Of a stretch of 32,000 nt of DNA, positions 7,130 to 32,000 are shown in pieces. The notes under the pieces were generated by a model. The model worked only from the letters and a program-made list of their open reading frames with translations, was not told the origin of the DNA and made no database searches. The position numbers were made by a program, and so were the translations under genes. The DNA is from Candidatus Saccharimonadota bacterium. Lineage in GTDB: Bacteria; Patescibacteriota; Patescibacteriia; 2-12-FULL-60-25. Every line of letters starts with the position of its first letter. The first letter of the stretch is position 1. The stretch is from contig CP064964.1 of NCBI GenBank assembly GCA_016699205.1, positions 750,001 to 782,000 on the forward strand. Reading direction: 5' to 3'.

Positions 7130-7165
7130 AGTTGAGTTTAGTTTAACAATGAACGCGCGTACAAA

Positions 7166-7196
7166 CAAAAAACCCTCCGAGCGGAGGGTTTTTTGT
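7166..7196 (-). terminator. Rho-independent terminator downstream of the 7206.. minus-strand gene
   Basis: AAAAAACCCTCC, loop GAGC, GGAGGGTTTTTT. The hairpin is symmetric with U-runs on both strands. Confidence 0.8.
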
Positions 7197-7205
7197 TTGT
7201 TCTGG

Positions 7206-15154: not shown

Positions 15155-18128
<2,974 letters not shown>

Positions 18129-18272
18129 ATCCAGATGTAAAACTCTGTCGATGGTCGAGCAAGTGCTACATTACGTAGCGCGTAGCAAGTGTTTTCCTAC
18201 TGCCTTGCACGTATCACTTTTGAATCCGCAGTTTGAGTCATCGATTTTGTTTTTCGAATAATCGAAAGCCAA

Positions 18273-18392
<120 letters not shown>

Positions 18393-18428: not shown

Positions 18429-18441
18429 GGTAAAAATAGTA

Positions 18442-18467
18442 AGAACGCACCTTGTTGGGTGCGTTCT
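18442..18467 (-). terminator. Terminator hairpin for minus-strand gene 18473..18958
   Basis: AGAACGCACC, loop TTGTTG, GGTGCGTTCT, 5 nt beyond the stop codon. On the minus strand the following sequence is T-rich (TACTATTTTTA). Confidence 0.65.
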
Positions 18468-18472
18468 GTTGA

Positions 18473-18958
18473 TCAGGTACCGAGGATGGTGAGCATCTCG
18501 AGGATCGCGTGCTTGTTTGCAGCAACTCGTCTCTCTTTCTCCGCCTCGATTGTGAGCATATTTTTCACGTGTTGCATGCCGGCGGCCCATGAGCGGATGG
18601 TGGTGGTTGTGTCACCTCCGTCCTCCTCCCATACGACCGTTCCATCCGGATAGAATCGCAGGGTCCAGATCACCCCACGCTCGTCGCGAAGCGTCAAATA
18701 CTGATGCCGTTCATCGCGATGATAGTCGCAGGAGAACTCTTTGTGCCAGCCGCAGAAACTGAGTTCTTTGATGAACTTGTTGAGTGCTTCCTCGAGGGCA
18801 TTGAATCGGTCGGAGTAGAGTGATTGCTCCTGCTCTGTTGACTTATCGTTGAGATGGAATCCCGGAGCTTCGGGAATGTTGAGGATGAGTCGTGGAGTGA
18901 TCTCAGGGTCCAGCGGCGGATCGTTGAAGTTGCCGCTCATTTTGTTTTCACCACCCAT
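18473..18958 (-). CDS. Hypothetical protein
   Basis: 161 aa. The ATG at 18958 is preceded by AGAGG with 5-6-nt spacing. No recognised family. Confidence 0.65.
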   Translation of the reverse strand: MGGENKMSGNFNDPPLDPEITPRLILNIPEAPGFHLNDKSTEQEQSLYSDRFNALEEALNKFIKELSFCGWHKEFSCDYHRDERHQYLTLRDERGVIWTLRFYPDGTVVWEEDGGDTTTTIRSWAAGMQHVKNMLTIEAEKERRVAANKHAILEMLTILGT

Positions 18959-19068
18959 AACTACCTCTTGGAGTCTGAGAACTCGGAAAGGACCTAACTT
19001 TTATAGATGAGATAAGCCAAAAAGTCAAGAGTAGTACTTGGCTTTTGTGTTTGTGCTAATATTTCTTC

Positions 19069-19893
19069 ATGAAAAAGTGCCTGGAACCATCTCCGGAAGA
19101 TTCGGAATTGAAAGCATTAAAAACGCAGGCGGTACAGGATTATATAGCAAGTCGTCCAGAGCGGCCGATACAGTTTGACCTTGACTCGCCTGAATATGAT
19201 CAAGCTCGGGAGGAGGCATTAGCTTTGAGCGAATTTATTAAATCTAAACAAGAATTAGTTGAGCCAATAAGAAGTTCGGTCTCCCATCCGTACCTCAATA
19301 GAGCCGAATCTTGGTTTAGAGGCATTCAGCGAGACTTAGAGAATCCGCGCTCCAGGTCTCTTGATGCTATTCGTAAAGATATTCATGACATAAAAACGGA
19401 ACTAAATCGTAAAGAGCAGGAGTATCATTTAAAGAAACTTCAAGAGGCAAAGAACCCTTTTTCAAAGGAGTCTTGGGAGGAGCAGGTTCGTTTGAGACAG
19501 GATGCGGAGATGGCTTTGGAATTATTGGATGTAATTTCCCGAGCTAAGAAGCCCAAGGATCTTTCTACACGCGAAGAGTCTTTATGGCAGAAGATTATTG
19601 TCCAGGCAAAAGGCCTCAAAAATCAGTACGGGCTCGACAACAAAAGTTTTATACAGGAAGCCCGTGAGGTAATTGAGCGTTCGGCTGAGCTCCAAAGAGT
19701 TTCTGCCAATTATCTGGAACGTTTTTTAGCTATTCGTAGTCGTTTGGAAAAGCGCGCCAAGACTTTGGGTGAGCAGGTAACGAATGAATTGTTTAAACGG
19801 TTAAAACCGGAGTTGGTTGAGTTGGCTAAGAAGGAATTAGCATCTATGGAATTGGATGAAGCTTTAGATGAAATTTTGGTAAGTGCTTTTTAG
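19069..19893 (+). CDS. Hypothetical helical protein encoded by an AT-rich gene
   Basis: 274 aa, K/E/L-rich. Sampled lines give about 32-47% GC, against >60% for the next gene. TGCTAATAT (extended -10-like) ends 6 nt before the ATG, so the mRNA may be leaderless. Confidence 0.6.
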   Translation: MKKCLEPSPEDSELKALKTQAVQDYIASRPERPIQFDLDSPEYDQAREEALALSEFIKSKQELVEPIRSSVSHPYLNRAESWFRGIQRDLENPRSRSLDAIRKDIHDIKTELNRKEQEYHLKKLQEAKNPFSKESWEEQVRLRQDAEMALELLDVISRAKKPKDLSTREESLWQKIIVQAKGLKNQYGLDNKSFIQEAREVIERSAELQRVSANYLERFLAIRSRLEKRAKTLGEQVTNELFKRLKPELVELAKKELASMELDEALDEILVSAF

Positions 19894-19962
19894 ATTCAAC
19901 CCTTTACAAAATTCCTCTTTTTTGCGATGGTTTCCTCGGTTCTTTATTAATCGGAGGTTCCC

Positions 19963-20391
19963 ATGGGTCACAGGGAGTGGTTGAAGGCGGCAGAGACGGT
20001 CGAGGCGCAGAAGCGTCAGCCCGAGGTCGAGGCCAGGGAGATCGAGGAAGAGGCGCGCAAGCTCGAGAGCTTCTTGAGCAGCGTCGAGGGTAATGCCGCA
20101 CGGCGGCTCCTCAAGGCGACGGCCAAGCACATCATCGTCGGCGAGCTCGAGGCTTCCCCGGGGCATGCGATGGTCTGCTTCTTGGATGGCGAAGGACTGC
20201 GGCAGTCCATCGAAGGTAAGGGGCTCTCGGGCGCTTACGCGGGCAACAAGCCCGACATTTCCTCGACAACGCCGGAGCTGGCGACCAAGGCTTTCACGCA
20301 TCCTGATCGTGGGAAGCGCAAGCCGTCTGAGCTCCTGAACTACATTCGCGGTGAGCTCGACAAGATCGCCGAGGCGGTCAAGAAGGGATAG
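19963..20391 (+). CDS. Hypothetical protein
   Basis: 142 aa. The ATG is preceded by GGAGG with 5-nt spacing. GC-rich, no recognised family. Confidence 0.65.
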   Translation: MGHREWLKAAETVEAQKRQPEVEAREIEEEARKLESFLSSVEGNAARRLLKATAKHIIVGELEASPGHAMVCFLDGEGLRQSIEGKGLSGAYAGNKPDISSTTPELATKAFTHPDRGKRKPSELLNYIRGELDKIAEAVKKG

Positions 20392-20401
20392 ATCTGCTGC
20401 T

Positions 20402-20441
20402 GAGTCCGACGCATTGCTTTGCGTCGGACTCTTGCGTTTTG
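20402..20441 (+). terminator. Rho-independent terminator
   Basis: GAGTCCGACGC, loop ATTGCTTT, GCGTCGGACTC, followed by TTGCGTTTTG. Confidence 0.75.
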
Positions 20442-20478
20442 TATCTCTATTTACAGGAAAGGAGTACGCTGTATTGAT

Positions 20479-20649
20479 ATGAATCAAAAATCTCTCGCGA
20501 TGTGGTCTTTCTGGATTGGTGCCGTGATCGTGCTTGTGACGCATGTCTATATGTTGGTGGCGGGATTGCCTGCGTCGCAGATGATGGGACACTCGATATT
20601 GAACTTGGTTGCTGGGGCGCTTGTCATCTTTGGTTGGATGAAGCGCTAG
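20479..20649 (+). CDS. Small two-TM membrane protein (56 aa)
   Basis: MNQKSLAMWSFWIGAVIVLVTHVYMLVAGLPASQMMGHSILNLVAGALVIFGWMKR has two hydrophobic helices. The tracked start at 20419 lies inside the preceding terminator, so I trimmed to the ATG at 20479. Confidence 0.5.
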   Translation: MNQKSLAMWSFWIGAVIVLVTHVYMLVAGLPASQMMGHSILNLVAGALVIFGWMKR

Positions 20650-20657
20650 AGAATGCG

Positions 20658-20687
20658 AAAGGCCGTCCAGAGAGGGCGGCCTTTTTT
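20658..20687. terminator. Bidirectional terminator
   Basis: AAAGGCCGTCC, loop AGAGAG, GGCGGCCTTTTTT (one bulged base), between convergent genes. Confidence 0.7.
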
Positions 20688-21036
20688 AGTGTTTACGTTT
20701 TTGGCTCGCGCGGATCTTTCGCGCGATGTAGATCCCTTCCGGTGTAAGACGGTAGAAAAGTCTCGCTGCCGGCTTTTTTGCGCCAGGTGGCAGGATCGGA
20801 GGTGGGGCAGAAATGCACTCGATGTGACCGTACAGAATGAGGAGATTCAACATCTTTCTTCCGGCGCTTGGGTCTTTTCCGTAGTGAATCTCCGTGTAAT
20901 GGCCCGGATGTGTGTCCTCGATCAGGAGCAGTACTTGCATGATTTCCACGCGGATCGTCTGCTCCGATTGCTTGATCGATAGCCAGAGCGCGATGAATGC
21001 GATGGCGGCTAGTACCGCGAGAAGGGCGTAGACCAT
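20686..21036 (-). CDS. Membrane-anchored small protein with a putative winged-helix domain
   Basis: N-terminal TM helix MVYALLAVLAAIAFIALWL. The rest (IMQVLLLIEDTHPGHYTEIHY...LNLLILYGHIECIS...RLFYRLTPEGIYIARKI) resembles PadR/MarR-like wHTH topology. This is a weak, pattern-based call. Confidence 0.45.
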   Translation of the reverse strand: MVYALLAVLAAIAFIALWLSIKQSEQTIRVEIMQVLLLIEDTHPGHYTEIHYGKDPSAGRKMLNLLILYGHIECISAPPPILPPGAKKPAARLFYRLTPEGIYIARKIRASQKRKH

Positions 21037-21152
21037 TCAAGCCTCCGGTGACTATTTGAATCTGAATATCGCTCTTTGTCAATGGTCGATTCTGCGTTGA
21101 CATCGCTTCCGTAAAATGATGAGCTTGCGGCGGTTCCTTGAAAGGAAAACCT

Positions 21153-21665
21153 ATGCTGAACGGACTCGAATCGTTCGTGCCTCGATTGCTCGAGCTCACT
21201 CGTCAGGCCGGGATCGACGTCTCGGAATATCTCATGGACCATGTGTGCTATCGCGTGGCGGACATGAAGCGTTATGAAGAGCTTGCGCATGTTTGGCGAC
21301 TCTTTGCCGAGAAGACGCACGAGAGTATGGTGAACGGCCGGCCGATCACCGTGTTCACGCTTTACACGCCGATCAAGATCGCGGGACGTATCATCCGCGT
21401 GATCGAGTTGCCGGCGCCGAAAGAGGGTGCCCCGTATCCTGAAGGTTGGGAGCATGCAGAGTTCGTCATCGACGAGCCGTTTGCGCACTTCATGTCGCGC
21501 TACGACGAGCATGTCTTTGATACGAGAGGTCTCGCCAAAGAGTTCAATCCCGAACTCGGATACAAGCTGCCCGAAGGTCTGCAGATCAAGTTTCATCAGA
21601 TGCCGCTCGAGTGCGTCATCGAGATCGAGGCGGATCGTGGATTGCCTCTACCTAGCGAAGAATAG
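21153..21665 (+). CDS. VOC-superfamily protein, YecM-like
   Basis: The ATG at 21153 is preceded by AAGGA with 6-nt spacing. MDHVCYRVADMKRYEEL...GRPITVF...IRVIELPAPKEG.PYPEGWEHAEFVI fits the YecM/VOC fold pattern as I recall it. Confidence 0.6.
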   Translation: MLNGLESFVPRLLELTRQAGIDVSEYLMDHVCYRVADMKRYEELAHVWRLFAEKTHESMVNGRPITVFTLYTPIKIAGRIIRVIELPAPKEGAPYPEGWEHAEFVIDEPFAHFMSRYDEHVFDTRGLAKEFNPELGYKLPEGLQIKFHQMPLECVIEIEADRGLPLPSEE

Positions 21666-21678
21666 TTGAGGAGGATGT

Positions 21679-22461
21679 ATGCCTGCCGTGCGATTTCCCG
21701 TGATCAAGCCAGAGTACGAAGTCAACAATGGGAATGATTTCCAGGTCCCCGTGTTGCGCGAGATCAGCCCGCGAATTGGTTGGACACTGCGCTTGTTCAT
21801 CGATACGGACGTGCAAGTGCATCAGGTCTGGTATCCGATGGTCGAGAATGGCGATGCGGATATCGCCGAATGCAAGAAGCGATTTCGTGCGCTCAAGAAC
21901 GAGCTTCCTCGACTGTTCCCTCCGATGTACAAGACAGAACGTGAAGAGGACACGGATCTGCATTCCGCGCTGACGGATATCGGCGCCGAGCATTTCTATG
22001 GCGGATGGATGCGTAAGTTTGACGACACGGCCAAGCTCGCGGGACCAATCTGGGTCGGTAGGCACGTGAGTTTCCGATCATCGTGCAAGGTGCTCGGTCC
22101 CTCGCTCATCGAGTCGAATGTAACGATCGGAACTTCTGCGATCGTGAATCGCTCGATCGTGTGTCGGCGTACGGAGATTGACGCGGGCGCGCAGGTCGCG
22201 GATTCGATCATCGGGCGCGATGTGTACATCGGGCCGACGGCACTTCTTCTGCATAAGCCGCTTACGGGTAAACTCGAACCGCTTCACGAAGGAGTGAGGC
22301 TCACGAATCGCAAGAAGTGCGGAGTCATCGTTGGCGACGGATGCCGTATCGGTGCCGGAGCCACGATTGAGCCGGGGACAATCCTCATGCCCAAGTGCGT
22401 TGTGCCCATCGGCCAACATGTGAAGACCGGGTTTTATTGCCCAGAAGACTTCCGAGACTGA
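21679..22461 (+). CDS. Protein with unknown N-terminal domain and C-terminal left-handed beta-helix (hexapeptide repeat) domain
   Basis: RBS GAGGAGG sits 5 nt before the ATG. The C-terminal half shows hexapeptide periodicity (VGRHVSF.SSCKVLG.SLIESNVTIGTSAIVNRSIVCRRTEIDAGAQVADSIIGRDVYIGPTA...CGVIVGDGCRIGAGATIEPGTIL), like the LbH tails of sugar-nucleotidyltransferases and acyltransferases. Confidence 0.65.
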   Translation: MPAVRFPVIKPEYEVNNGNDFQVPVLREISPRIGWTLRLFIDTDVQVHQVWYPMVENGDADIAECKKRFRALKNELPRLFPPMYKTEREEDTDLHSALTDIGAEHFYGGWMRKFDDTAKLAGPIWVGRHVSFRSSCKVLGPSLIESNVTIGTSAIVNRSIVCRRTEIDAGAQVADSIIGRDVYIGPTALLLHKPLTGKLEPLHEGVRLTNRKKCGVIVGDGCRIGAGATIEPGTILMPKCVVPIGQHVKTGFYCPEDFRD

Positions 22462-22466
22462 AACTG

Positions 22467-22496
22467 AAATCCTCCGCTTATACTAGCGGAGGATTT
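22467..22496. terminator. Bidirectional terminator, overlapping the last codons of the flippase gene
   Basis: AAATCCTCCGC, loop TTATACTA, GCGGAGGATTT. Confidence 0.7.
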
Positions 22497-23929
22497 GACG
22501 TTTTGGCTTTGAGAATGTCTTGAAGCGTCTCTTTTTTTATACCGCCCATGGCGTAGAGGACGAGAGCATAGACGATTGCGCCGACAAGGATCGGAATCGC
22601 AACGAATTGATCGCGTAGGAACCAGACAAAAATCGACATGAGTATTGATGCGCCGATTGCGGCGAGGAGAACGCGCGGCTTGAATTCTGTCGGTATGGCT
22701 TTGTGCGAGACGATGATGGAACCAAGTCCGACGAGAACTTCGGAAGCGACGGTGAGCCAGGCAGCTGCCCACATGCCGTACGTTGGAATGAAGAGGAGGT
22801 AGCCGATCACGGCGCCGATCGCAACCGCAATATAAACCGGAATCATTTTACGCTGGCCATCGATTGCGACCACGATATGCGAGAAGACGGTATTTAAATA
22901 AATGGCGGCGACGGCGACGATCAAAATTGAAAGGATGCGACCGGAGTCCGCAAACTCCGGACCGGCGACTAATATCATAATACGTTCGCCGAGGATCCAG
23001 GTGCCGGCCATCATCGGTAAACAAAAGACGAGCATGACATCGATCGAGTTGGTGACGAGGTTTTTGAATTTTGGAAGATCTTTTTTTGCAAAGGCGTTGG
23101 AGAGGATTGGAAGAAGTACGCCGGCATACATGAAGGGGACAGTGATGAGTATTTCAAGTACTCGGTAAGCAGCTCCGTAGATTCCGACCTCGGTTTGAGG
23201 ACGAACAAACGAGAGAATAAGCGTGTCCGCTTTGAAATACGCGAGCCCGAAAGCAATAGAAAGTCCGACCGGCCAGGATCTGTGTAGAGCCATTTTCCAG
23301 AACACTGGGTCCCAATTCCAGTGGAAATCGGCGTATTTGCGGGCAGAGAGGAAGTTGAGGATGAAGTTGCCAAACCCGGCGAGCGAGATGAACCACATGA
23401 TCGGCACGAGGCCCCAGCCCTGCGATTGTGCAATGAGTAATCCGGCGAGTGCGATCACGCGGCCGACATTTTCTGCAATGGCGGCCATCGACATTCTAAG
23501 GTGACGCTGTTGCGCGCCTACGACGACTTGATTCAAGCTCGGGAAAATAAATGAACCGGTGAGAGCGATGATCGCGAGTTTGAGTGCAAGCGGATAAGGA
23601 GAAGCGAGTGCGACCGCTGGCGCGACAAGACCAAGAATCAAAAACGCCATGACGATGCGCAATGTGAAAAGCGCGCTCGTACAGCGCCTCTCATATTTTT
23701 CATCACCGGCATGCTCGCCGAGAAGTGCGACGAGCGTTACGTTCAAGCCGAGGTCGAGAAGTAGTGCGAAGACTTGGAGAAAGGCGTTTGCTGTCGAGTA
23801 GGCACCAAAGCCTTCCGTGCCGAGCTGGCGCGTCATGAGCCCGATGATGACGATGCCGAGAACGGTGGATACGCCTTTACCGAGTATTTGTACGCCTGTA
23901 TTGAGGGCTAGGGAGCGGGCGAGCGACAT
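22478..23929 (-). CDS. MOP-superfamily oligosaccharide or lipid-II flippase (Wzx/MurJ-like polysaccharide biosynthesis protein)
   Basis: Start trimmed to the ATG at 23929 (MSLARSLALNTGVQILGKGVSTVLGIVIIGLMTRQLGTEGFGAYSTANAF...). 483 aa, about 12-14 hydrophobic helices, with the typical N-terminal motif of Wzx/MurJ-type flippases. Confidence 0.75.
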   Translation of the reverse strand: MSLARSLALNTGVQILGKGVSTVLGIVIIGLMTRQLGTEGFGAYSTANAFLQVFALLLDLGLNVTLVALLGEHAGDEKYERRCTSALFTLRIVMAFLILGLVAPAVALASPYPLALKLAIIALTGSFIFPSLNQVVVGAQQRHLRMSMAAIAENVGRVIALAGLLIAQSQGWGLVPIMWFISLAGFGNFILNFLSARKYADFHWNWDPVFWKMALHRSWPVGLSIAFGLAYFKADTLILSFVRPQTEVGIYGAAYRVLEILITVPFMYAGVLLPILSNAFAKKDLPKFKNLVTNSIDVMLVFCLPMMAGTWILGERIMILVAGPEFADSGRILSILIVAVAAIYLNTVFSHIVVAIDGQRKMIPVYIAVAIGAVIGYLLFIPTYGMWAAAWLTVASEVLVGLGSIIVSHKAIPTEFKPRVLLAAIGASILMSIFVWFLRDQFVAIPILVGAIVYALVLYAMGGIKKETLQDILKAKTSNPPLV

Positions 23930-23979
23930 GCGGGCTAGTGTACATTGAACGAATGGGGTTGAACATTTACTATGATGGC

Positions 23980-24714
23980 ATGTTTCTGCGTGGGTTTGCG
24001 ATCTTTTTGTTGATTTGCGGTTTACTGCCGATTCATTTGGTATTGGCCCAGAATGCTTCAAGTACAAATTTTCAGAATACAGACTCCTCGATCTTACCTT
24101 TGATTGTTAATACCCAGTCCGGAAATTTTCAAATTGATGGATCGGTGCAATCGATTGTTGGCAGCGTGCAGAGTCCTTCTTTCCTGGTGGAAAGCGGAGC
24201 ACAATCAACGAGCGGAACAACGCCGACCGTTGTCGTCATACCGCCTCCTAGCGGAGGGGGAGGTGGCGGAGGAGGGCTTCCGTTGCCTCAAACGGGACCG
24301 AGACTTGAGCCCGCGCCTACAATTGATCCTCGGGATTGGACCTATAAAACTACGGCTATTGTTCAGGGTTCACGCGGTGTTGATGGTGCGGCTATTTTGC
24401 TGAATAGCTCCGATATTGGCGTGATTTATCCGAATGAACAGCGCTGGGAACGGAGTTTGCCTCTTGGACTGGGGGATAATTTGATCCAGATTCAAGCAAA
24501 ACTCGGAGATCGCGTTTCTATCGTTGTTATAGGTATGGTGCATCGTCGTTTGATCGGGGATGTGAATGATGATCGGGTGGTTGATGATGTCGATCTTTCT
24601 TTGTTCACCAGGCACTGGCGTCGTTATGATCGCCAGTCTGATTTTAATGAAGATGGTATGATTGATGATATCGATCTATCGTTGCTCGCCAGTCATTGGG
24701 GTCGACGATATTGA
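23980..24714 (+). CDS. Secreted protein with C-terminal dockerin-like duplicated Ca-binding repeat
   Basis: Start at ATG 23980 (MFLRGFAIFLLICGLLPIHLVLA/QNAS) or 23953. Gly8 linker. The C-terminus carries two EF-hand-like dockerin segments, GDVNDDRVVDDVDLSLFTRHW and DFNEDGMIDDIDLSLLASHW. The TGA stop is 2 nt before the next ATG. Confidence 0.75.
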   Translation: MFLRGFAIFLLICGLLPIHLVLAQNASSTNFQNTDSSILPLIVNTQSGNFQIDGSVQSIVGSVQSPSFLVESGAQSTSGTTPTVVVIPPPSGGGGGGGGLPLPQTGPRLEPAPTIDPRDWTYKTTAIVQGSRGVDGAAILLNSSDIGVIYPNEQRWERSLPLGLGDNLIQIQAKLGDRVSIVVIGMVHRRLIGDVNDDRVVDDVDLSLFTRHWRRYDRQSDFNEDGMIDDIDLSLLASHWGRRY

Positions 24715-24716
24715 TT

Positions 24717-25898
24717 ATGAAGCGTTTCTTTTTTCTTTTTGCTCTCCTCCTGCTCGTGCCGCGAGATGTTTTTGCCGCATCTGCCGGTTTGACGGGGCCA
24801 GCTGAGGTTCAGGTTGGGAGAACGTTCCAGGTACGTATGACGGTTGGGGGAGCTGTTGATGTTGATACGGTGCGTTTTGTGGGCTCGTTTCCTACGGATT
24901 TGCTCGAGTTTCAAGGGATGGCGAATGGATCGTCTTTGCCGACGCGCTCGCCTGGATCAGGTGCAACGGGTGGAACGTTTAATTTTGGCGGTTTCTCTTT
25001 AGGGAATCCGGTGAATGGTGGAACGCAGGCCGGTGTCCTGACATTTCGTGCGAAAAAAATTGGAGAGGCGACGATTTCTCTGCAAGGAGGAACGCGTATT
25101 TTGTCCGCAGGAGAAGATCAGACGACAGGACGGGGGAGTTTGAAGATCAAGATCGTGGAAGCTCCGGCACCCGGCGAGATTCCGGTGACGCCGCCGGTTC
25201 AGACGACGATCGATCTTTTGAGTAAGACGCATCCTGATCAGAATGTCTGGTATCCAAAGCGAGGCCTTGGTCTTGAGTGGAAATTCAGCGGAAGACAGCC
25301 GATTTCTTACACGGTTGGTTTTGATCAGGCGCCGGAAGGTCCTGCGGAGATGAGAGCTGTTGCTACAAGCTCGGCTTCATTTGATGCTCCAAACGATGGC
25401 GTTTGGTATGGTCATTTGGTTGTCCGTTACTCTGCGAGCGAGATTGTCCGTAAAGACTTCCGTTTCTTGGTTGATTCAACAGCTCCACGTCCGTTGGCGG
25501 TGTCTGTTGACCAGAACGATGTTCGTCCGCAAACGCCGAATTTTCTTAGATTTACAGCTTTGGATGATGCTTCTGGTGTCGCGCGTTACGACGTTAGTAT
25601 CAATGAAACATTCGTCACTTCTACAGCATTGCCTTACTTGTCTTTGGCTGAGCTCGGTGCTGGGGACTATCGTGCTCGAGTGCGCGCTGTTGACTATGCA
25701 GGTAATGCCTCGGAAGGGGTTACCGAGTTCCGCCTTACGGACAAGATCACAGGTGTTGATGCGGATCTCGTACGAGCTGAGCGATGGCAAGATTCTATTT
25801 TGCGCTTAGTTCTGGCATTTTTTGCCATTCTTCTCTTGTTTATTTTTGGGATTTTGGTGGGGCGACGTACATTGGAAAAGAAGCGACGTAAAAAATAA
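24717..25898 (+). CDS. Cohesin-like domain protein with Ig-like domains and C-terminal TM anchor
   Basis: ATG at 24717 (MKRFFFLFALLLLVPRDVFA/AS). The N-terminal ~130 aa fit the cohesin pattern (VQVGRTFQVRMTVGGAVDVDTVRFVGSFPTDLLEFQG...GVLTFRAKKIGEATISL). The middle contains SKTHPDQNVWY and D.AGN-type beta-sandwich motifs (RVRAVDYAGNAS). The C-terminus is ILRLVLAFFAILLLFIFGILVG-RRTLEKKRRKK. Confidence 0.7.
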   Translation: MKRFFFLFALLLLVPRDVFAASAGLTGPAEVQVGRTFQVRMTVGGAVDVDTVRFVGSFPTDLLEFQGMANGSSLPTRSPGSGATGGTFNFGGFSLGNPVNGGTQAGVLTFRAKKIGEATISLQGGTRILSAGEDQTTGRGSLKIKIVEAPAPGEIPVTPPVQTTIDLLSKTHPDQNVWYPKRGLGLEWKFSGRQPISYTVGFDQAPEGPAEMRAVATSSASFDAPNDGVWYGHLVVRYSASEIVRKDFRFLVDSTAPRPLAVSVDQNDVRPQTPNFLRFTALDDASGVARYDVSINETFVTSTALPYLSLAELGAGDYRARVRAVDYAGNASEGVTEFRLTDKITGVDADLVRAERWQDSILRLVLAFFAILLLFIFGILVGRRTLEKKRRKK

Positions 25899-25952
25899 GT
25901 TGGATCTTGATTAGTTACCCACAGTTTTAGCTAATTTTTGCAGAAAAAGGAG

Positions 25953-25958
25953 TATAAT
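25953..25958 (+). promoter_or_regulatory. Perfect TATAAT -10 hexamer upstream of the giant gene
   Basis: TATAAT at 25953..25958 follows AAAAGGAG. No convincing -35 at 17 nt. It lies 47 nt before the ATG at 26006. Confidence 0.35.
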
Positions 25959-26005
25959 TGATTTGGCCGTTGAACCCTTGTTCCACGGTAATATTCAAAT
26001 AAAAA

Positions 26006-29000
26006 ATGGAGCCAAAGCGGGTGGTTAAAATCAAGCGTACGTTTCGGAAAACAATTGCCACGATCCTTTCCTTGATTCAATTGTCAGGAATGGGGCTTTT
26101 TCCGAATGCTCCAACATTTTTCTTGGATTTTTTCCGTGCATTACCTGCGTACGCAGCCACTCCGACAACACTCGGTTATCAGGGGCGACTTAAAAATTCT
26201 TCCAGTGTCGCATTAAGCGGTAGTTATAATTTTACTTTTCGATTGTATTCGGCTGCTTCCGGAGGCGTATCGCTTTGGACGGAGACACAGACAGGTGTAA
26301 GTGTTAGTGATGGATATTTTGCGGTTCGGCTTGGTTCTGTCACCCCGTTTCCATCGACGTTTGATTTTAATCAGCCGCTGTATCTCACCACAGAAGTGAA
26401 TAGCGATGGTGAAATGTCGCCGCGTGTTGCTGTTAATAATGTTGCGTACGCGTATACGGCTGGCGGCATCAACTCCCTCGACAGTGATCCAGTTTCCGCG
26501 ACAGGTGGAAGAATGTATTATAATACAACCGATGGCAGTTTGCGTTACTATGATGGCCAAGCGGCTCTTTGGACGATTTTAGGCTCATCCGGTTCCTCGA
26601 CGAGCTTGCAGGCAGTAACGAATGTTGGGAATAGCACGACAAATGCGTTGATTTTTGCCGGCGGAACATCGACAGCGAATTTTGTCTTTCAATCAAACGT
26701 GACGGTTGGTGGGTCAGCAACGCTTCAGAATTTTACGTTTAGCGCTGGTTCAGGAACGAGCATGGTAACGACTAACTCGACCTCAACGAATCTCTTTGCG
26801 TCCAATGCCGTGTTCACAAGTCTTTCTGTCGGCACCTTTAATCCGACCAATATTACTTGGACGAATGCAACGGGTACGAATACGACTACGACAAATTTGG
26901 GAGTGCTTGGACCCGCATCGATCGCCGGTCTTTTGACGTTTGGCTCGGCGACCGGATCGACATTGAATGCGAATAGTACGAATATCGGGAGCGGTACGAT
27001 CGGTACGCTTTCATCGGCGACGGGTACGATTGCTGTTTTGAATTCCGGGAGTGCGAATATCGCCACGCTCTTGTTTGGAAATGCGACGGGATCGACTCTA
27101 AATGCTGTTACTATTTCTGGAACGACTGTTACGACGACGGCGCTTTTTGTGAATGGTCGAGCGGTGTGTCTTGTTGACGGTACGAATTGTCCGGCCTCCG
27201 GAACCGAGAGTGATACGCTTGCTTCCGTTACCAATCGAGGCGCTTTTGCTACCTCGAGCGTCACGCTCTTTGGCGGCCTCACCACTTCCAACCTCACCGC
27301 GACTGGAACCACCTCGCTTCAGAACACCACCGCAACCAATCTCGCCTCAACGGGATTGCTCTCGTTTGTTGCTGCAACCGGCTCTACGCTTAACGCCAAC
27401 TTCGCCTCCTTCGCCTCGGCTACCATTGCCGGACAGGGGATTTGTTTGCAGAACGGCGTTGGTTGTCCGAGTACTGCTACCGAAGCCGATACCCTGGCCT
27501 CGGTTACGAACCGTGGAGCCTTTGCGACTTCAAGTGTCACGCTCTTCGGCGGCCTCACCACTTCCAACCTTACCGCCACCGGAACGCTCTCGGTTACAGG
27601 CGTTTCCTCCCTTGCCGGCGTTACCTTCACGAATGCGACGGGCACTAATGCCACGACGACGAATTTCTTTGCGACGAATGGAGTCTTCACAAATCTCATC
27701 GCTTCTACCTTCACGGTTGCAACTCTTAACACCACGAATCTCACATGGACGAATGCAACGGGTACGAATACGACTTCCACCAATCTTTTTGGTTCGAACC
27801 TCGGTTTCTCAAGCGCTACAGGAACCTCTTTGAACACAAACACGCTTAATGCCGGTTCTGTCACTCTTGGCACGGCAACGGTTTCAGGTCTGACGTCTCT
27901 CCAGAACACGGCTCTTACGAACGGAACCTCAACGAACTTTGCCTCTACCGGACTTCTCTCATTCTCGACAGCAACGGGTACCCAGATCCTCGCGAATATC
28001 GGTACATTCTCTACGGCGACGGTTTCTGGTGTCGCTGTCTGTCTTGCGAATGGCGTCGGTTGTCCAAGTGGAACCGTGCTTTCCGATACCCTCCAGTCCG
28101 TTACAGCTCGCGGAAGCTTTACGACGACCACGGTTCAGTTCTTTGGAGGTCTCACGACGAGTGATTTAACAGTTACCGGTACGGCTTCACTTCAAAATAC
28201 GACGGCAACGAATCTCGCCTCGACTGGATTGCTTTCGTTTACTTCAGCGACTGGAACTTCGTTGAATTCAAATAATGCCGCGATTGGAATTTTGTCTTTT
28301 GGTAGCGCAACCGGCTCTACGCTTAACGCAAACTTCGCTTCATTCGCCTCGGCTACCGTTGCAGGGCAGGGGATTTGTTTGCAGAACGGTGTTGGTTGTC
28401 CTTCCACCGCGACTGAAGCCGATACGCTCGCGAGCGTTACGAATCGCGGTTCCTTTGCTACATCATCAGTTACGCTGTTTGGTGGACTTACAACATCGAA
28501 CGTAACAGCAACCGGTACGCTTACTGTTGGTGGGGTATCCTCGTTGGGAGGAGTGACATTCACGGATGCGACTGGAACGAATGCTACGGCTACAAATATT
28601 TTTGCTTCAAACTTAGGATTTACGAATGCGACGGGTTCAATATTGAATGCGAATACGGTTGCCGCGGGTCTGCTCGTGTTCGGAAATGCTACTGGTGCAA
28701 CATTAAATGCTGGAGTTCTTTCCGCTTCTATTGTTACGTCGACCGCAGTGCTCGTAAACGGTATCGCTGTTTGTTTGGCGAATGGAACCAACTGTCCTTC
28801 TAGCACAAGTCCGAATTTCCAGACGGTGACGAATGCCGGTAACACGACGACGAATGCGATCCAGTTTGGAGGAGGTACTTCAACCGGAGACTTTGTCTTT
28901 AGTTCATCGGCTAGCGTTAATGGTTTACTGACTTTTGTAAGTGCCACTGGGTCGATTTTGAACGCCAACTTTGCTTCCTTCGCCTCCGCTACCGTTGCCG

Positions 29001-31660
29001 GACAGGGGATTTGTCTTCAGAACGGTGTCGGCTGTCCGTCTGCCTCAGCTGAAGCCGATACCCTGGCCTCGGTCACGAGTCGCGGAGCCTTTGCGACTTC
29101 AAGTGTGACGTTGTTTGGAGGGCTCACCACTTCCAACCTTACCGCCACCGGCACGCTCTCGGTTACAGGCGTTTCCTCCCTTGCCGGAGTTACCTTCACC
29201 AATGCCACCGGCACCAATACGACTTCCACCAATCTTTTTGGTTCGAACCTCGGTTTCTCAAACGCTACAGGAACCTCTTTGAACACAAACACGCTTAATG
29301 CCGGTTCTGTCACCCTCGGCACGGCAACGGTTTCAGGTCTGACGTCGCTTCAGAACACGGCTCTTACGAACGGAACCTCAACGAACTTTGCCTCGACAGG
29401 GCTTCTCTCGTTCTCAACCGCGACTGGTACCCAGATCCTCGCGAATATCGGTACATTCTCTACGGCGACGGTTTCTGGTGTCGCTGTCTGTCTTGCGAAT
29501 GGCGTCGGTTGTCCGAGCGGTACGGTTCTTTCCGATACGCTTCAGTCGGTCACGGCTCGCGGAAGCTTTACGACGACCACGGTTCAGTTCTTTGGAGGAT
29601 TGAGTGCGTCGAATATTACCGCGACCGGAACCACATCGCTCCAGAACACCACTGCAACGAATCTTGCTGCTACTGGATTGCTTTCGTTTACTTCAGCCAC
29701 GGGAACTTCGTTGAATTCAAATAATGCCGCGATTGGAATTTTGTCTTTTGGTAGCGCGACCGGTTCTACGCTTAATACGAATTTCGCATCCTTCGCTTCT
29801 GCAACGGTCGCGGGACAGGGGATCTGTCTCCAGAACGGTGTTGGCTGTCCTTCGGCTGCCGCTGAAGCCGATACCCTCGCTTCGGTCACGAACCGTGGAG
29901 CCTTTGCGACCACAACCCTCACGCTCTTCGGCGGCCTCACCACTTCCAACCTTACCGCCACCGGCACGCTCTCGGTTACAGGCGTTTCCTCCCTTGCCGG
30001 AGTTACCTTCACCAATGCCACCGGCACCAATACGACTTCCACCAATCTTTTTGGTTCGAACCTCGGTTTCTCAAACGCTACAGGAACCTCTTTGAACACA
30101 AACACGCTTAATGCCGGTTCTGTCACCTTCGGCACGGCAACGGTTTCAGGCCTGACGTCTCTCCAGAACACGACGCTAACAAATGGAACCTCGACGAACT
30201 TTGCTTCAACTGGATTGCTTTCGTTCTCGACGGCAACGGGTACCCAGATTCTTGCGAATATTGGTACGTTCTCGACGGCAACCGTCATGGGCGTCGCTGT
30301 GTGTTTGCAGAACGGTGTTGGTTGTCCGAGCGGTACGGTTCTTTCCGATACGCTTCAGTCGGTCACGGCTCGCGGATCATTTACAACAACGACGGTTCAG
30401 TTCTTTGGCGGCCTCACCACTTCCAACCTCACCGCCACCGGAACGACCTCACTTCAGAACACCACGGCCACCAATCTCGCTTCGACTGGATTGCTCTCGT
30501 TTGTTTCAGCGACTGGCTCTACGCTTAACGCCAACTTCGCTTCCTTCGCTTCTGCAACGGTCGCGGGACAGGGGATCTGTCTCCAGAACGGTGTTGGCTG
30601 TCCTTCGGCTGCCGCTGAAGCCGATACCCTCGCTTCGGTCACGAACCGTGGAGCCTTTGCGACCACAACCCTCACGCTCTTCGGCGGCCTCACCACTTCC
30701 AACCTTACCGCCACCGGAACGCTCTCGGTTACAGGCGTTTCCTCCCTTGCCGGCGTTACCTTCACCAATGCCACCGGCACCAATGCCACGACGACGAATT
30801 TCTTTGCGACTAATCTCGGCTTCTCAAATGCTACGGGCACTTCTCTGAACGTGAACGCGTTGTCTGCTGGCTCGGCTGTGCTTGGCACGGTGACCGTTTC
30901 CGGCTCTACCTCGCTTCAGAACACAACTCTCACGAACGGAACCTCAACGAACTTTGCTTCGACAGGACTTCTCTCGTTCTCAACCGCGACTGGTACCCAG
31001 ATCCTCGCGAATATCGGTACATTCTCGACTGCCACGGTTTCTGGTATCGCGGTCTGTCTCGCGAATGGCGTTGGTTGTCCGAGTGGAACGGTACTTTCCG
31101 ATACCCTCCAATCCGTCACGGCTCGCGGCAGCTTCACGACGACCACGGTTCAGTTCTTTGGAGGATTGAGTGCGTCGAATATTACCGCGACCGGAACCAC
31201 ATCGCTCCAGAACACCACTGCAACGAATCTTGCTGCTACTGGATTGCTTTCGTTTACTTCAGCCACGGGAACTTCGTTGAATTCAAATAATGCCGCGATT
31301 GGAATTTTGTCTTTTGGTAGCGCGACCGGTTCTACGCTTAATACGAATTTCGCATCCTTCGCTTCTGCAACGGTCGCGGGACAGGGGATCTGTCTCCAGA
31401 ACGGTGTTGGCTGTCCTTCGGCTGCCGCTGAAGCCGATACCCTCGCTTCGGTCACGAACCGTGGAGCCTTTGCGACCACAACCCTCACGCTCTTCGGCGG
31501 CCTCACCACTTCCAACCTTACCGCCACCGGCACGCTCTCGGTTACAGGCGTTTCCTCCCTTGCCGGAGTTACCTTCACCAATGCCACCGGCACCAATACG
31601 ACTTCCACCAATCTTTTGGTTCGAACCTCGGTTTCTCAAACGCTACAGGAACCTCTTTGA
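26006..31660 (+). CDS. Giant T/S/N/G/A-rich fibre-like surface protein (reading frame broken at 31614..31617; the coding repeat continues to the window end)
   Basis: 1884-aa ORF. Basic N-terminus plus a hydrophobic segment (TIATILSLIQLSGMGLF). A ~130-aa N-terminal domain (TLGYQGRLKNSS..LSGSYNFTFRLYSAASGGVSLWTETQTGVSVSDGYFAVRLG...PLYLTTEVNSDGEMSPRVAVNNVAYAYTA) resembles the N-terminal domain of tail-fibre-like proteins. Alternating repeat modules with Cys-loops follow. Confidence 0.85.
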   Translation: MEPKRVVKIKRTFRKTIATILSLIQLSGMGLFPNAPTFFLDFFRALPAYAATPTTLGYQGRLKNSSSVALSGSYNFTFRLYSAASGGVSLWTETQTGVSVSDGYFAVRLGSVTPFPSTFDFNQPLYLTTEVNSDGEMSPRVAVNNVAYAYTAGGINSLDSDPVSATGGRMYYNTTDGSLRYYDGQAALWTILGSSGSSTSLQAVTNVGNSTTNALIFAGGTSTANFVFQSNVTVGGSATLQNFTFSAGSGTSMVTTNSTSTNLFASNAVFTSLSVGTFNPTNITWTNATGTNTTTTNLGVLGPASIAGLLTFGSATGSTLNANSTNIGSGTIGTLSSATGTIAVLNSGSANIATLLFGNATGSTLNAVTISGTTVTTTALFVNGRAVCLVDGTNCPASGTESDTLASVTNRGAFATSSVTLFGGLTTSNLTATGTTSLQNTTATNLASTGLLSFVAATGSTLNANFASFASATIAGQGICLQNGVGCPSTATEADTLASVTNRGAFATSSVTLFGGLTTSNLTATGTLSVTGVSSLAGVTFTNATGTNATTTNFFATNGVFTNLIASTFTVATLNTTNLTWTNATGTNTTSTNLFGSNLGFSSATGTSLNTNTLNAGSVTLGTATVSGLTSLQNTALTNGTSTNFASTGLLSFSTATGTQILANIGTFSTATVSGVAVCLANGVGCPSGTVLSDTLQSVTARGSFTTTTVQFFGGLTTSDLTVTGTASLQNTTATNLASTGLLSFTSATGTSLNSNNAAIGILSFGSATGSTLNANFASFASATVAGQGICLQNGVGCPSTATEADTLASVTNRGSFATSSVTLFGGLTTSNVTATGTLTVGGVSSLGGVTFTDATGTNATATNIFASNLGFTNATGSILNANTVAAGLLVFGNATGATLNAGVLSASIVTSTAVLVNGIAVCLANGTNCPSSTSPNFQTVTNAGNTTTNAIQFGGGTSTGDFVFSSSASVNGLLTFVSATGSILNANFASFASATVAGQGICLQNGVGCPSASAEADTLASVTSRGAFATSSVTLFGGLTTSNLTATGTLSVTGVSSLAGVTFTNATGTNTTSTNLFGSNLGFSNATGTSLNTNTLNAGSVTLGTATVSGLTSLQNTALTNGTSTNFASTGLLSFSTATGTQILANIGTFSTATVSGVAVCLANGVGCPSGTVLSDTLQSVTARGSFTTTTVQFFGGLSASNITATGTTSLQNTTATNLAATGLLSFTSATGTSLNSNNAAIGILSFGSATGSTLNTNFASFASATVAGQGICLQNGVGCPSAAAEADTLASVTNRGAFATTTLTLFGGLTTSNLTATGTLSVTGVSSLAGVTFTNATGTNTTSTNLFGSNLGFSNATGTSLNTNTLNAGSVTFGTATVSGLTSLQNTTLTNGTSTNFASTGLLSFSTATGTQILANIGTFSTATVMGVAVCLQNGVGCPSGTVLSDTLQSVTARGSFTTTTVQFFGGLTTSNLTATGTTSLQNTTATNLASTGLLSFVSATGSTLNANFASFASATVAGQGICLQNGVGCPSAAAEADTLASVTNRGAFATTTLTLFGGLTTSNLTATGTLSVTGVSSLAGVTFTNATGTNATTTNFFATNLGFSNATGTSLNVNALSAGSAVLGTVTVSGSTSLQNTTLTNGTSTNFASTGLLSFSTATGTQILANIGTFSTATVSGIAVCLANGVGCPSGTVLSDTLQSVTARGSFTTTTVQFFGGLSASNITATGTTSLQNTTATNLAATGLLSFTSATGTSLNSNNAAIGILSFGSATGSTLNTNFASFASATVAGQGICLQNGVGCPSAAAEADTLASVTNRGAFATTTLTLFGGLTTSNLTATGTLSVTGVSSLAGVTFTNATGTNTTSTNLLVRTSVSQTLQEPL

Positions 31661-32000
31661 ACACAAACACGCTTAATGCCGGTTCTGTCACCTTCGGCAC
31701 GGCAACGGTTTCAGGCCTGACGTCTCTCCAGAACACGACGCTAACAAATGGAACCTCGACGAACTTTGCTTCAACTGGATTGCTTTCGTTCTCGACGGCA
31801 ACGGGTACCCAGATCCTCGCGAATATCGGTACGTTCTCGACTGCCACGGTTTCTGGTATCGCGGTCTGTCTCGCGAATGGCGTTGGTTGTCCGAGTGGAA
31901 CGGTACTTTCCGATACCCTCCAATCCGTCACGGCTCGCGGATCATTTACAACAACGACAGTTCAGTTCTTTGGCGGCCTCACCACTTCCAACCTCACCGC
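27150..32000 (+). repeat. Hierarchical coding repeat array (sub-units ~280/334/477 bp; 1566-bp near-perfect super-repeat)
   Basis: Cys-loop codons (TGTCC) recur near 27190, 27465, 28063, 28396, 28797, 29033, 29511, 29845, 30321, 30600, 31077, 31411 and 31887. By eye, 29581..30249 is identical to 31147..31813 except for one missing T. Confidence 0.9.
31618..32000 (+). CDS. Continuation of the giant repeat protein in the +2 frame after a 1-nt deletion (partial, runs off window)
   Basis: From 31618 the frame GGT TCG AAC CTC GGT TTC TCA AAC GCT ACA... is open to base 32000. It encodes the same module sequence (GSNLGFSNATGTSLNTNTLNAGSVTFGTATVSGLTSLQNTTLTNG...) found at 30049 onward. Confidence 0.8.

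Follow-up and report, generated by a model that had tools for sequence, protein, structure and literature searches.

A frameshift-split giant gene of Candidatus Uhrbacteria probably encodes a secreted surface fibre with a MAT-like N-terminal domain and a shaft of Cys-loop junction modules

Results

The stretch of DNA analysed here (the window, 32,000 nt) comes from the genome of Candidatus Uhrbacteria IPH19 (Patescibacteria, CPR; about 1.08 Mb). An ORF starting with ATG at 26006 (+) closes, as assembled, at 31660 after 1,884 aa, and an exact look-up of this ORF returned no record. An earlier note, made from the letters of the window, had described a frame of at least 1,990 aa open past the window end. 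This does not hold for the assembled sequence, in which a frameshift at a T4 run (31614..31617, +; three paralogous copies have T5) leads to a premature TGA (31658..31660, +), where the next annotated CDS, IPH19_03825, begins at an overlapping TTG. Downstream of the TGA, module sequence runs on in the +3 frame to 32000, and restoring one T in the run at 31614 gives 1,998 open codons up to the window end. The window translation from aa 1886 onward is identical to aa 2-114 of P0037 (IPH19_03825), and P0059 (IPH19_03830, QQR60514.1, 2,995 aa) picks up the same module frame again. A second frameshift lies some 0.9 kb beyond the end of the window, in a G-run, so that both shifts fall inside homopolymers. 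Further window proteins correspond to IPH19_03800 and GenX, on the same 1,082,254-bp contig; going by the numbering, the window ORF is IPH19_03820, and the assembly splits one continuous gene into IPH19_03820, 03825 and 03830. The whole gene measures about 16 kb, with about 5,380 aa and about 29 junctions (13 of them in the window, which covers the 5′ 37%); past 32000 it was reconstructed from P0037, P0059 and a 94%-identical JGI contig, not from IPH19 DNA.

The first 50 residues (26006..26155, +) form a signal or signal-anchor: in the translation the n-region is basic, TIATILSLIQLSGMGLF makes up a hydrophobic stretch, and an AYA|A motif is present. AlphaFold places helices at 7-30 and 35-42 of this leader, in agreement with the hydrophobic anchor or signal proposed before, and all homologues have a signal-peptide-like leader that ends just ahead of the conserved domain. 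That domain, a MAT_N-like beta-rich module at aa ~51-150 (26156..26455, +), has the motif YQGRL...F.LY...GG..LWTETQ...V..G.F.V.LGSVTPF...YL...V..DGEMSPR. The NCBIfam model NF053851 (Bdello_MAT_N, chimeric fibre protein) matches aa 43-114 with E = 5.7e-9 and 36 bits, under its curated cut-off of 60, and is also matched by 33 of 37 aligned N-domain sequences. By its sequence we judge the domain homologous to the Bdellovibrio MAT N-domain, yet outside the Bdellovibrio subfamily by the NCBI threshold. AlphaFold gave a confident beta-rich fold (pLDDT 92-98 across aa 55-145), for which Foldseek against PDB and viral structures found nothing better than E = 5e-4, all generic beta-sandwich matches; a PDB sequence search with the N-terminal 382 aa and the modules gave compositional matches only (HIV gp120, designed repeat proteins).

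The first shaft segment (aa 151-376; 26456..27133, +) contains GGRMYYNTTDGSLRYYDG as well as a junction-like motif without Cys, SLQAVTNVGNSTTNALIFAGGTST, which recurs in homologues; PHROG matches at aa 155-225 are weak (E about 1e-3). It is followed by an array of 13 shaft modules that continues past the window (27134..32000, +). Each module opens with a junction of ~55-75 aa, in which a C-x6-C loop is followed by a predicted short helix at DTLxSV and then by RGxFxTxxVxLFGGL, and after the junctions two module types alternate, one of 159 aa and one of 92/112 aa. The 13 loops (ICLQNGVGC, VCLANGVGC, VCLVDGTNC, VCLANGTNC or VCLQNGVGC) hold all 26 Cys of the window protein. Their first-Cys codons start at 27167, 27443, 28040, 28376, 28772, 29012, 29489, 29825, 30302, 30578, 31055, 31391 and 31867, giving spacings of 276, 597, 336, 396 and 240 bp and then 477/336/477/276/477/336/477 bp; the alternation of 334 or 279 with 477 bp claimed in the earlier note roughly describes the last 3.3 kb but not the earlier part. 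The conserved junction motif claimed along with the Cys loops is real: 12 of the 13 loops precede DTL(A/Q)SVT(N/A/S)RG(A/S)F(A/T)T..V/L..(L/F)FGGL, the exception being the loop at aa 923, with the variant NFQTVTNAGNTTTNAIQFGGG. The composition of the window protein (T 22%, S 13%, G 12%, A 12%, L 10%, N 9%) likewise fits the T/S/N/G/A tracts described before. Lys is absent, and D, E and R together make up about 2%.

Junction copies are under purifying selection, with dN/dS of about 0.04-0.16, and the earlier copies are synonymously saturated (dS up to >1). Given saturated dS together with low dN/dS, the motif is held by protein-level selection and not only by recent duplication; it is also kept across divergent genomes. 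As the Cys loop is missing from the junctions of some relatives, disulphides are not essential to the module.

At the DNA level, the last part of the window consists of a 1566-bp (522-aa) super-repeat, as had been claimed, with copy 1 at 28961..30526 (+) and copy 2, truncated by the window end, at 30527..32000 (+). Identity between 28961-30435 and 30527-32000 is 91.5% at the 1566-bp period. Copy 2 carries a 482-bp tract identical to copy 1 (29570-30051 = 31136-31617) and, past a one-T indel, 201 further identical bases; the single-T difference between blocks pointed out earlier is the T5-to-T4 frameshift itself. A block of ~190 bp occurs three times, 29123 and 29936 being identical over 192 bp and 31502 matching too, and the final 190 bp of the window are indeed a patchwork (31834-31940 = 31022-31128; 31967-32000 = 27267-27300). 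The near-identity of repeats is confined to the last ~3 kb and does not extend to the earlier copies, whose dS reaches >1. Copy 1 is collinear with the single copy of the JGI strain (L005 12959-13771), which window positions 30529-31341 match as well, at 98%. Since both copies match the same L005 segment, the unit is duplicated relative to that 94%-identical strain (two copies here, one there), a copy number that, like the 100%-identity tracts, comes from one assembly that carries homopolymer indels. Tandem Repeats Finder reported no repeat, because the period exceeds 500, the longest that it covers. The mosaic tracts and the difference in copy number between strains fit intragenic recombination, in line with the gene conversion or unequal recombination suggested before.

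Beyond the window, the C-terminal domains are non-repeat and comprise a Gly-rich stretch, a globular domain, a weak phage-tail-fibre-like region, a coiled-coil-like stretch and a Pro/Glu tail. One PHROG tail-fibre match (E = 8e-7) was the only hit in this part of P0059. Neither Pfam, run on C-terminal segments of L006 (the orthologue in the JGI strain), nor NCBIfam and PHROGs, run on P0059, detected an S74, tail-collar, TNF or lectin tip, although a tip of unrecognised fold may be present; assignment of the C-terminal DPGTVVSID...GD.LT.S domain to Peptidase_G2 or S74 was rejected for want of a Pfam match. A GTDB genome scan with the C-terminal 592 aa found no relative.

Two genes precede the fibre gene. 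The first (23938..24714, +; translation probably starts at the ATG near 23953) encodes a secreted protein with a hydrophobic N-terminus, a Gly-rich linker and a C-terminal type I dockerin (Pfam Dockerin_1, E = 4e-6, 27.4 bits against a gathering cut-off of 22.9). The product of the second (24717..25898, +; 393 aa), a candidate membrane anchor or scaffold, begins with a signal peptide and ends in a C-terminal TM helix and a KKRRKK tail; between these lie a conserved beta-rich N-domain and an FnIII-like domain. Its 7-orthologue profile matches the FnIII of chitinase A1 (1k85) with E = 4e-4. The N-domain of this protein looks cohesin-like by eye only; a cohesin assignment was discarded after Pfam, PDB phmmer and PDB profile searches gave no match. 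Synteny is largely kept: both partners lie directly upstream of the fibre gene in 5 of 7 related loci (L007, L009, L010, L018 and L020), the membrane-anchored gene alone stands beside it in L019, and L013 has neither. A perfect TATAAT hexamer at 25953..25958 (+), 48 nt upstream of the start codon, is only a lead as a -10 box, and a promoter consensus scan upstream of the fibre gene found no complete promoter. Elsewhere in the window, the 274-aa ORF at 19069-19893 was considered as a thiol oxidoreductase for disulphides (NCBIfam, E = 0.006) and rejected, as it has no Cys. Its product is charged, helical and cytoplasmic-looking.

The junction module is in none of Pfam, NCBIfam, PHROGs, PDB or the phage genomes searched. 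An exhaustive representative search with the junction profile recovered 184 clusters among 1.84 billion protein clusters; all of those named in their source are hypothetical proteins, nearly all are labelled Patescibacteria, and they are often giants. A word-indexed search of 5.8 billion sequences with the 76-column profile had no match at E <= 1e-3, owing to the shortness of the query relative to a collection of that size. The N-domain is present in 64 of 157 junction-bearing proteins, beginning no later than residue ~75 in almost all of those listed. Junction-bearing proteins reach 26 junctions and 6,814 aa. Pfam matches on the whole window protein (AIM3_BBC1_C, zf-CCCH) were discarded as spurious, low-complexity hits.

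Discussion

We consider it probable that positions 26006-32000 are the 5′ part of a single Uhrbacteria gene of ~5,380 codons, split by frameshifts, for a secreted surface fibre with a MAT-like N-domain and a shaft of junction modules. The N-domain would fix the fibre to the cell envelope, and the dockerin and membrane-anchored proteins encoded upstream may share in this anchoring. The shaft would assemble as an oligomer, probably a trimer, into a beta-rich rod some 150-200 nm long, in which the junctions may act as register-setting, disulphide-stapled nodes. The distal end would bind a partner cell or surface, and recombination between the DNA repeats could alter the number of modules, and hence the length of the fibre, between strains.

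The shaft may instead be a single-chain beta-solenoid (a pentapeptide-repeat or other monomeric beta-helix), in which case the protein would be a monomeric surface spacer or adhesin and not a MAT-like trimer; we think this unlikely. Identity autocorrelation of the shaft is significant at lag 5 (z = 4.9) and at lag 20 (z = 5.9), and its Fourier spectrum peaks at 2.49 residues; periods of 5 and 20 residues would fit the quadrilateral beta-helix of pentapeptide-repeat proteins. The sole PDB sequence matches of the modules, marginal at E 0.5-0.9, are to designed beta1 repeat proteins, with an aligned part that is pentapeptide-like by eye, and short strands abound in the monomer model made with AlphaFold for 360 aa of modules. 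However, the Pfam pentapeptide families (PF00805 and relatives) had no match in the window protein even at E <= 1, and the junction breaks the shaft every 90-160 aa. The module model is uninformative, its pLDDT being 58 where monomeric solenoids are usually predicted with confidence, and the absence of a fold match when Foldseek was run with it is meaningless. The company that the N-domain keeps gives an indirect hint of a trimer, as its relatives bear collagen, tail-collar, S74 and other C-terminal parts, the first three of which are parts of trimeric fibres.

The repeat structure on which a fibre of variable length would depend could in part be an artefact of assembly, with consensus chimerism or a mis-joined repeat accounting for the near-identical last ~3 kb and for the module count, a reading that we also doubt. 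Short-read assemblies do not reach beyond the first junctions (L001 ends at window position 25648, L002 at 27296), the present assembly has homopolymer errors, and the 94%-identical strain has no second 1566-bp unit. Yet two independent long contigs are collinear over the first 3.8 kb of the gene, the junction family commonly has giant ORFs with 13-26 junctions, and identity along the super-repeat is graded and mosaic, with 100%-identity tracts, and not that of a clean duplicate.

Taking the frameshifts as real, the gene would be a decaying pseudogene that yields no more than its first 1,884 aa, or no product at all. There are two frameshifts here and several in the JGI strain, but all are in short homopolymers and the sites differ between the two strains. 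Beyond each shift the module sequence resumes without other damage, and dN/dS stays well under 1. L007, the syntenic orthologue, is uninterrupted for >3,560 codons; together with L019, L020 and L014 it belongs to a set of relatives with unbroken ORFs of 2,285 to >3,560 aa and 7-18 C-x6-C loops. The same sort of T-run deletion also splits a PP2C gene in the window, which a 98.7%-identical genome has intact, with 393 aa. Decay of the gene is therefore improbable, and given the homopolymer sites and the uninterrupted ORFs of >3,500 aa in related genomes, we read both frameshifts as probable assembly errors. Programmed or phase-variable (slipped-strand) switching of the fibre on and off, or of its length, seems very improbable: both shifts do lie in coding mononucleotide runs, but these tracts have only 4-5 bases, shorter than typical contingency tracts, and a similar deletion is found in a housekeeping-type gene of the same assembly.

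Phage tail fibres and tailspikes resemble the proposed fibre in being modular, Thr/Ser/Gly/Asn-rich beta fibres whose modules are shuffled by recombination, and in motifs such as VGIGTTNPLAKLEV of the C-terminal part. The N-domain had earlier been taken for a tail-fibre-like module, and it does recur in fibre-type proteins, as the NF053851 match indicates. However, tblastn with the N-domain and with a module pair found no match in 50,697 phage genomes, so that "tail fibre" is a remote analogy only. That the gene belongs to a prophage or tailocin, to which the weak PHROG matches and the JGI name of the N-terminal fragment ("phage baseplate assembly protein gpV") could point, is hardly credible for a chromosomal gene amid housekeeping genes (rRNA genes, GenX and a polysaccharide flippase, with LytR_C and SpoIID in a related strain, and no phage genes found among the neighbours) whose product has a Sec-type signal peptide.

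The closest likeness is to the MAT fibres of Bdellovibrio, where all 21 MATs have a conserved domain, rich in beta structure and ~130 aa long, after the signal peptide, without a PDB homologue (Caulton et al., 2024, PMC10769870). The Uhrbacteria protein shares with them the signal peptide followed by a beta-rich domain of ~100-130 aa without PDB homologue, the long fibre with variable distal parts, the presence of several paralogues per genome and a host that is a small bacterium living off other cells. It differs in being ~5 times longer (~5,380 against ~1,000 aa), in an N-domain under the family cut-off, in a shaft of Cys-loop junction modules found in no library, and in that no S74, TNF-like or C-type-lectin tip was detected in it. 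Two conserved partner genes lie upstream at the Uhrbacteria locus, whose fibre is a putative trimer. To our knowledge, its Patescibacteria host has no outer membrane.

Other systems resemble the fibre in single features. In trimeric autotransporter adhesins (YadA, BadA), a short conserved connector (the "neck") recurs between repeats of variable length and intragenic recombination alters fibre length; the Uhrbacteria anchor, however, would be N-terminal and not C-terminal, and neither a YadA anchor nor any TAA domain of Pfam was detected when the window protein and the C-terminal segments of the orthologue from the JGI strain were searched. The ultrasmall genomes of Absconditicoccaceae (Vampirococcus, Strigamonas) encode surface-targeted proteins of >1,500 aa with a proposed role in host recognition (PMC13059738). 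They share with Uhrbacteria a giant surface-protein investment, whereas the Uhrbacteria fibre is built on its own module.

How CPR bacteria find and hold their hosts is little understood outside Saccharibacteria, where type IV pili have been studied as the attachment factor, and this locus offers a testable candidate in Uhrbacteria, in which host binding would be the function of the fibre. An N-domain common to this fibre and to the prey-recognition fibres of Bdellovibrio would mean that one anchor module serves two unrelated lifestyles of living off other bacteria. More tentatively, the Cys-loop junction might be a new kind of disulphide-stapled register node, possibly an inter-chain "cystine-knot", in a three-chain fibre whose length would exceed that of all characterised MAT and phage fibres several-fold and, at ~150-200 nm, would be comparable to the size of the cell; with both partners, such a fibre could be a host-tethering organelle of Uhrbacteria whose reach is tuned by recombination. 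The junction module and the conserved three-gene cassette are in no domain library and define a family open to modelling, expression and imaging. Giant genes of this kind are broken systematically by short-read assembly and carry frameshifts after long-read assembly, which is why they are split or lost in annotation. The fibre gene takes up ~1.5% of the 1.08-Mb genome and, with its paralogues of 2,787 and 2,215 aa, ~3%.

Extent of the fibre gene

The gene that begins at 26006 is real and unusual, yet its kind is recognisable: it encodes the giant, modular surface fibre of a Patescibacterium. We infer the binding of this fibre to a host or surface, its trimer state, its disulphides and its anchoring. 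By exact look-up, window positions 2468-3469 and 21679-22461 are GenX (QQR60487.1) and IPH19_03800 (QQR60508.1), respectively, and the IPH19_ locus tags belong to a 1,082,254-bp contig of Candidatus Uhrbacteria bacterium. Translation in frame from the ATG at 26006 gives 1,884 codons followed by a TGA at 31658-31660, and not, as first described, at least 1,990 aa running off the window. The ORF is closed early because a single T is missing. Bases 29570-30051 are repeated exactly at 31136-31617, after which the upstream copy has a run of five Ts and the downstream copy four (31614-31617), followed by 201 more identical bases. Five Ts are also present in each of the other three paralogous copies (27782, 29231 and 30044). 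Past the shift, module sequence continues unbroken in the +3 frame up to base 32000, and addition of one T leaves 1,998 codons open. The earlier note had correctly seen the one-base difference between the copies, but not that it is the frameshift closing the ORF.

Beyond the window the gene continues in IPH19_03825 (P0037, 502 aa), whose TTG start overlaps the premature stop and whose residues 2-114 are the frame-3 translation of the window to base 32000. This protein loses frame at a G-run, where AGQG|ICLQ is read as AGQG|SVSRTV, and the correct frame is resumed in IPH19_03830 (P0059, QQR60514.1, 2,995 aa). The stitched gene has ~5,381 codons and is thus ~2.7x longer than the window shows, a larger extent than initially reported. 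It encodes 28 visible C-x6-C loops and one hidden by the second frameshift, a module count that comes from one assembly, which has homopolymer errors. Besides modules, IPH19_03830 contains non-repeat parts: a globular insertion, a stretch rich in Gly that ends in VGIGTTNPLAKLEV, a globular region of ~300 aa, a region weakly similar to a PHROG tail fibre (E = 8e-7), a coiled-coil-like stretch and a Pro/Glu-rich tail; these parts had no match in NCBIfam or in Pfam, the latter searched with the orthologue of the related JGI strain.

Nature of the frameshifts

We think that both frameshifts are assembly errors rather than real, because both are in short homopolymers, the assembly has a homopolymer deletion elsewhere, the gene breaks at different places in the JGI strain, and an orthologue and several relatives are uninterrupted. 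The other deletion is at 13731, where a T-run one base shorter splits a PP2C-type phosphatase gene (13012-14192, - strand) into ORFs of 228 and 170 aa; in a 98.7%-identical genome (L001, GCA_963851785.1) the same gene is intact, with 393 aa. This split suggests a homopolymer assembly error or a strain-specific pseudogene. In the 94%-identical JGI strain (loci L005 and L006, 916,764-bp contig), several breaks interrupt the fibre gene, and at other positions. L007, from another Uhrbacteria genome, contains the syntenic orthologue, whose ORF runs uninterrupted for >3,562 codons and has 17 C-x6-C loops, and the frames of relatives L019, L020 and L014 remain open to the end of the available sequence (at least 3,555, 3,545 and 2,285 codons, respectively). 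Real frameshifts would make the fibre gene a pseudogene, a reading to which the breaks in both strains would lend themselves but which these open frames render improbable. A phase switch is more improbable still. At L006 15730-15732 we also observed an in-frame stop within a conserved stretch (…FSIVGGE*WGYLYVHGG…), whereas IPH19 reads straight through (…FSIVGANDGYLYVHGG…), which again points to an error-rich JGI contig.

Repeat anatomy, selection and proposed recombination

The repeat anatomy described in the earlier note largely stands, with corrections to the reading frame, the gene length and the way in which older repeats are kept. All 26 cysteines of the window protein fall in 13 C-x6-C loops, 12 of which are followed by DTL(A/Q)SVTxRGxFxTxxVxxFGGL, the exception being the loop at aa 923, with its variant motif. 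Successive loops are 92, 199, 112, 132 and 80, then 159/112/159/92/159/112/159 aa apart. The shaft is composed mainly of Thr (22%), Ser (13%), Gly (12%), Ala (12%), Leu (10%) and Asn (9%), lacks Lys and has almost no charge. The two copies of the 1566-bp super-repeat (28961-30435 and 30527-32000) are 91.5% identical overall, in a mosaic of 68-97% identity over the first 600 bp, 100% over ~684 bp, and lower identity again thereafter. Such perfect tracts within 68-97% identical repeats fit the proposed recombination between repeats, and the patchwork reported at the window end is present and fits exchange as well. The JGI strain is collinear with window 19653-29775, and a single unit of it (L005 12959-13771) matches both 28963-29775 and 30529-31341 (the latter at 98%), which is consistent with exchange between repeats.

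The repeats are not, however, nearly identical throughout. At most synonymous sites, junction copies in the first half have diverged from the later copies (dS 0.4 to >2, dN 0.04-0.12), and recent duplication or conversion (dS 0.03) is confined to the last ~3 kb. Because dN is this low despite such dS, the junction motif is held by purifying selection on the protein; selection, rather than the identity-preserving recombination originally invoked, thus keeps the older repeats. As expected with such repeats, short-read assemblies of close relatives reach the first junctions at most. In relatives from other assemblies, exact intragenic repeats were measured at 35-149 bp at the longest, which could reflect either biology or an assembly limit.

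The junction module and its family

The junction, which opens each shaft module with a C-x6-C loop, a predicted short helix at DTLxSV and the motif RGxFxTxxVxLFGGL, was matched by no entry of Pfam, NCBIfam, PHROGs or the PDB; it is rare, and new to the searched libraries and solved structures. An exhaustive HMMER search of 1.84 billion cluster representatives, using a 76-position profile of 12 window junction copies (alignment A3), found 184 representatives at E <= 1e-3, of which 31 reach E <= 1e-30. Many of these proteins are giant, at 2,000-6,814 aa and with as many as 30 stretches matched. Those named by their source are all "hypothetical protein". The label is Uhrbacteria or "Patescibacteria group" in nearly every case, and a few metagenome bins bear other labels. 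A domain resembling the N-terminal domain of Bdellovibrio mosaic adhesive trimer (MAT) fibres was present in 64 of the 157 junction-bearing proteins examined, starting within the first ~75 residues in nearly all among the matches listed. Given this co-occurrence, the leader/N-domain/junction-studded shaft architecture defines a family. Some relatives have a Cys-free segment in place of the loop and keep the core LQxVTxxGxxTTxxIQFAGGTST, so the putative disulphide is an optional staple and not the essence of the module.

Paralogues in the same genome are IPH19_03360 (P0063, 2,787 aa, 11 junctions), IPH19_03385 (P0193, 2,215 aa), which combines the N-domain and YVTN beta-propeller repeats with the junction, and P0058, an LVIVD-propeller protein with one junction. 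The 1.08-Mb genome encodes at least three further Cys-loop junction proteins, which with the giant gene take up ~3% of it.

Leader and N-domain

In the fibre leader, a basic stretch comes before a hydrophobic segment of 17 residues, and an AYA|A motif lies ~20 residues further along. A leader that stops just ahead of the conserved domain is present in all homologues; the one here is a predicted signal, either cleaved or kept as a membrane anchor. The domain that follows (residues ~51-150) was modelled by AlphaFold as beta structure with pLDDT 92-98, without a convincing fold match (best PDB E = 0.017; best viral model E = 5.5e-4, TM ~0.25). It matches NCBIfam NF053851 (Bdello_MAT_N) at E = 5.7e-9 and 36 bits, where the cut-off is 60, as do 33 of 37 aligned sequences. 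All 21 MATs of Bdellovibrio carry a beta-rich domain, conserved and ~130 aa long, directly after the signal peptide, without a PDB homologue and thought to bind a predator surface element (Caulton et al., 2024, PMC10769870). The window gene is therefore related to the MAT fibres through the N-domain, by a match under the family cut-off. Relatives of the N-domain end in collagen repeats or in phage tail-collar, S74 or FGE-sulfatase domains. The initial description of a module common in tail-fibre-like proteins was essentially right, although these relatives are bacterial chimeric fibres; by tblastn, neither the N-domain nor a module pair was found in 50,697 phage genomes.

Shaft fold

An AlphaFold monomer model of 360 aa over three junctions (pLDDT 58) places short helices at DTLxSV and contains numerous short strands. 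Within aa 200-1450, periodicities of 5 and 20 residues were significant (identity autocorrelation z = 4.9 and 5.9), with a Fourier peak at 2.49 residues. The pattern resembles that of pentapeptide repeats, but no pentapeptide family was matched in Pfam. By analogy we favour an intertwined trimer: MAT fibres are trimeric, members of the N-domain family are fused to domains that we take to be trimeric as well, and a poor monomer model is typical of obligate oligomers. Solved MAT fragments measure 142 Å per 370 aa and 95 Å per 334 aa, and at this scale 5,381 aa would form a rod of roughly 150-200 nm. The 1,998 residues of 26006-32000 contain 59 N-x-S/T sequons, and Thr and Ser make up 35% of the repeat region. 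Just upstream (21679-24067) are genes for a hexapeptide transferase of sugar-nucleotide type and for a polysaccharide flippase. The fibre may conceivably be glycosylated.

Neighbouring genes

No phage genes were found among the neighbours of the fibre gene, which are ordinary chromosomal genes: 23S and 5S rRNA (15157-18392), tRNA-Leu, GenX, a SPOUT methyltransferase, YecM, the hexapeptide transferase and the polysaccharide flippase. Two partner genes (23938-25898) lie on the same strand directly upstream of it. The product of the first is secreted and carries a type I dockerin at its C terminus (Pfam 27.4 bits, above cut-off). The second codes for 393 aa, in which a signal peptide is followed by a beta-rich N-domain that is conserved, an FnIII-like domain (profile against 1k85, E = 4e-4), a transmembrane helix near the C terminus and a tail of basic residues. 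In five of the seven related loci examined, both genes directly precede the fibre gene (at ~7.5-9.9 kb): L007, where synteny is full and includes YecM, the hexapeptide transferase and the flippase; L010; L020; and L009 and L018, two cassettes ~13 kb apart on one contig (JACRQE010000002.1). L019 has the second partner gene only, and L013 neither. This conserved three-gene cassette, which falls outside the region that the earlier note covered, is the best lead to how the fibre may be fixed to the cell. Pfam, PDB sequence and profile searches detected no cohesin in the second partner protein; a cohesin there, if true, would give a dockerin-cohesin anchor.

The rRNA operon is unlinked, since no 16S gene lies within 15 kb upstream of the 23S and 5S genes; the 23S gene fits the full-length model and has no large insertion. 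Between the 5S gene and the next gene is a ~1.47-kb segment (18430-19898) of low G+C content (0.42 vs ~0.53) that is missing from the close relative L001. An ORF at 19069-19893 encodes a highly charged, Cys-free, probably helical protein of 274 aa with no family match. Three consecutive large ORFs on the - strand (4739-9896; 809, 354 and 530 aa), the first with a bacterial Ig (Big_7) domain, may encode further surface proteins.
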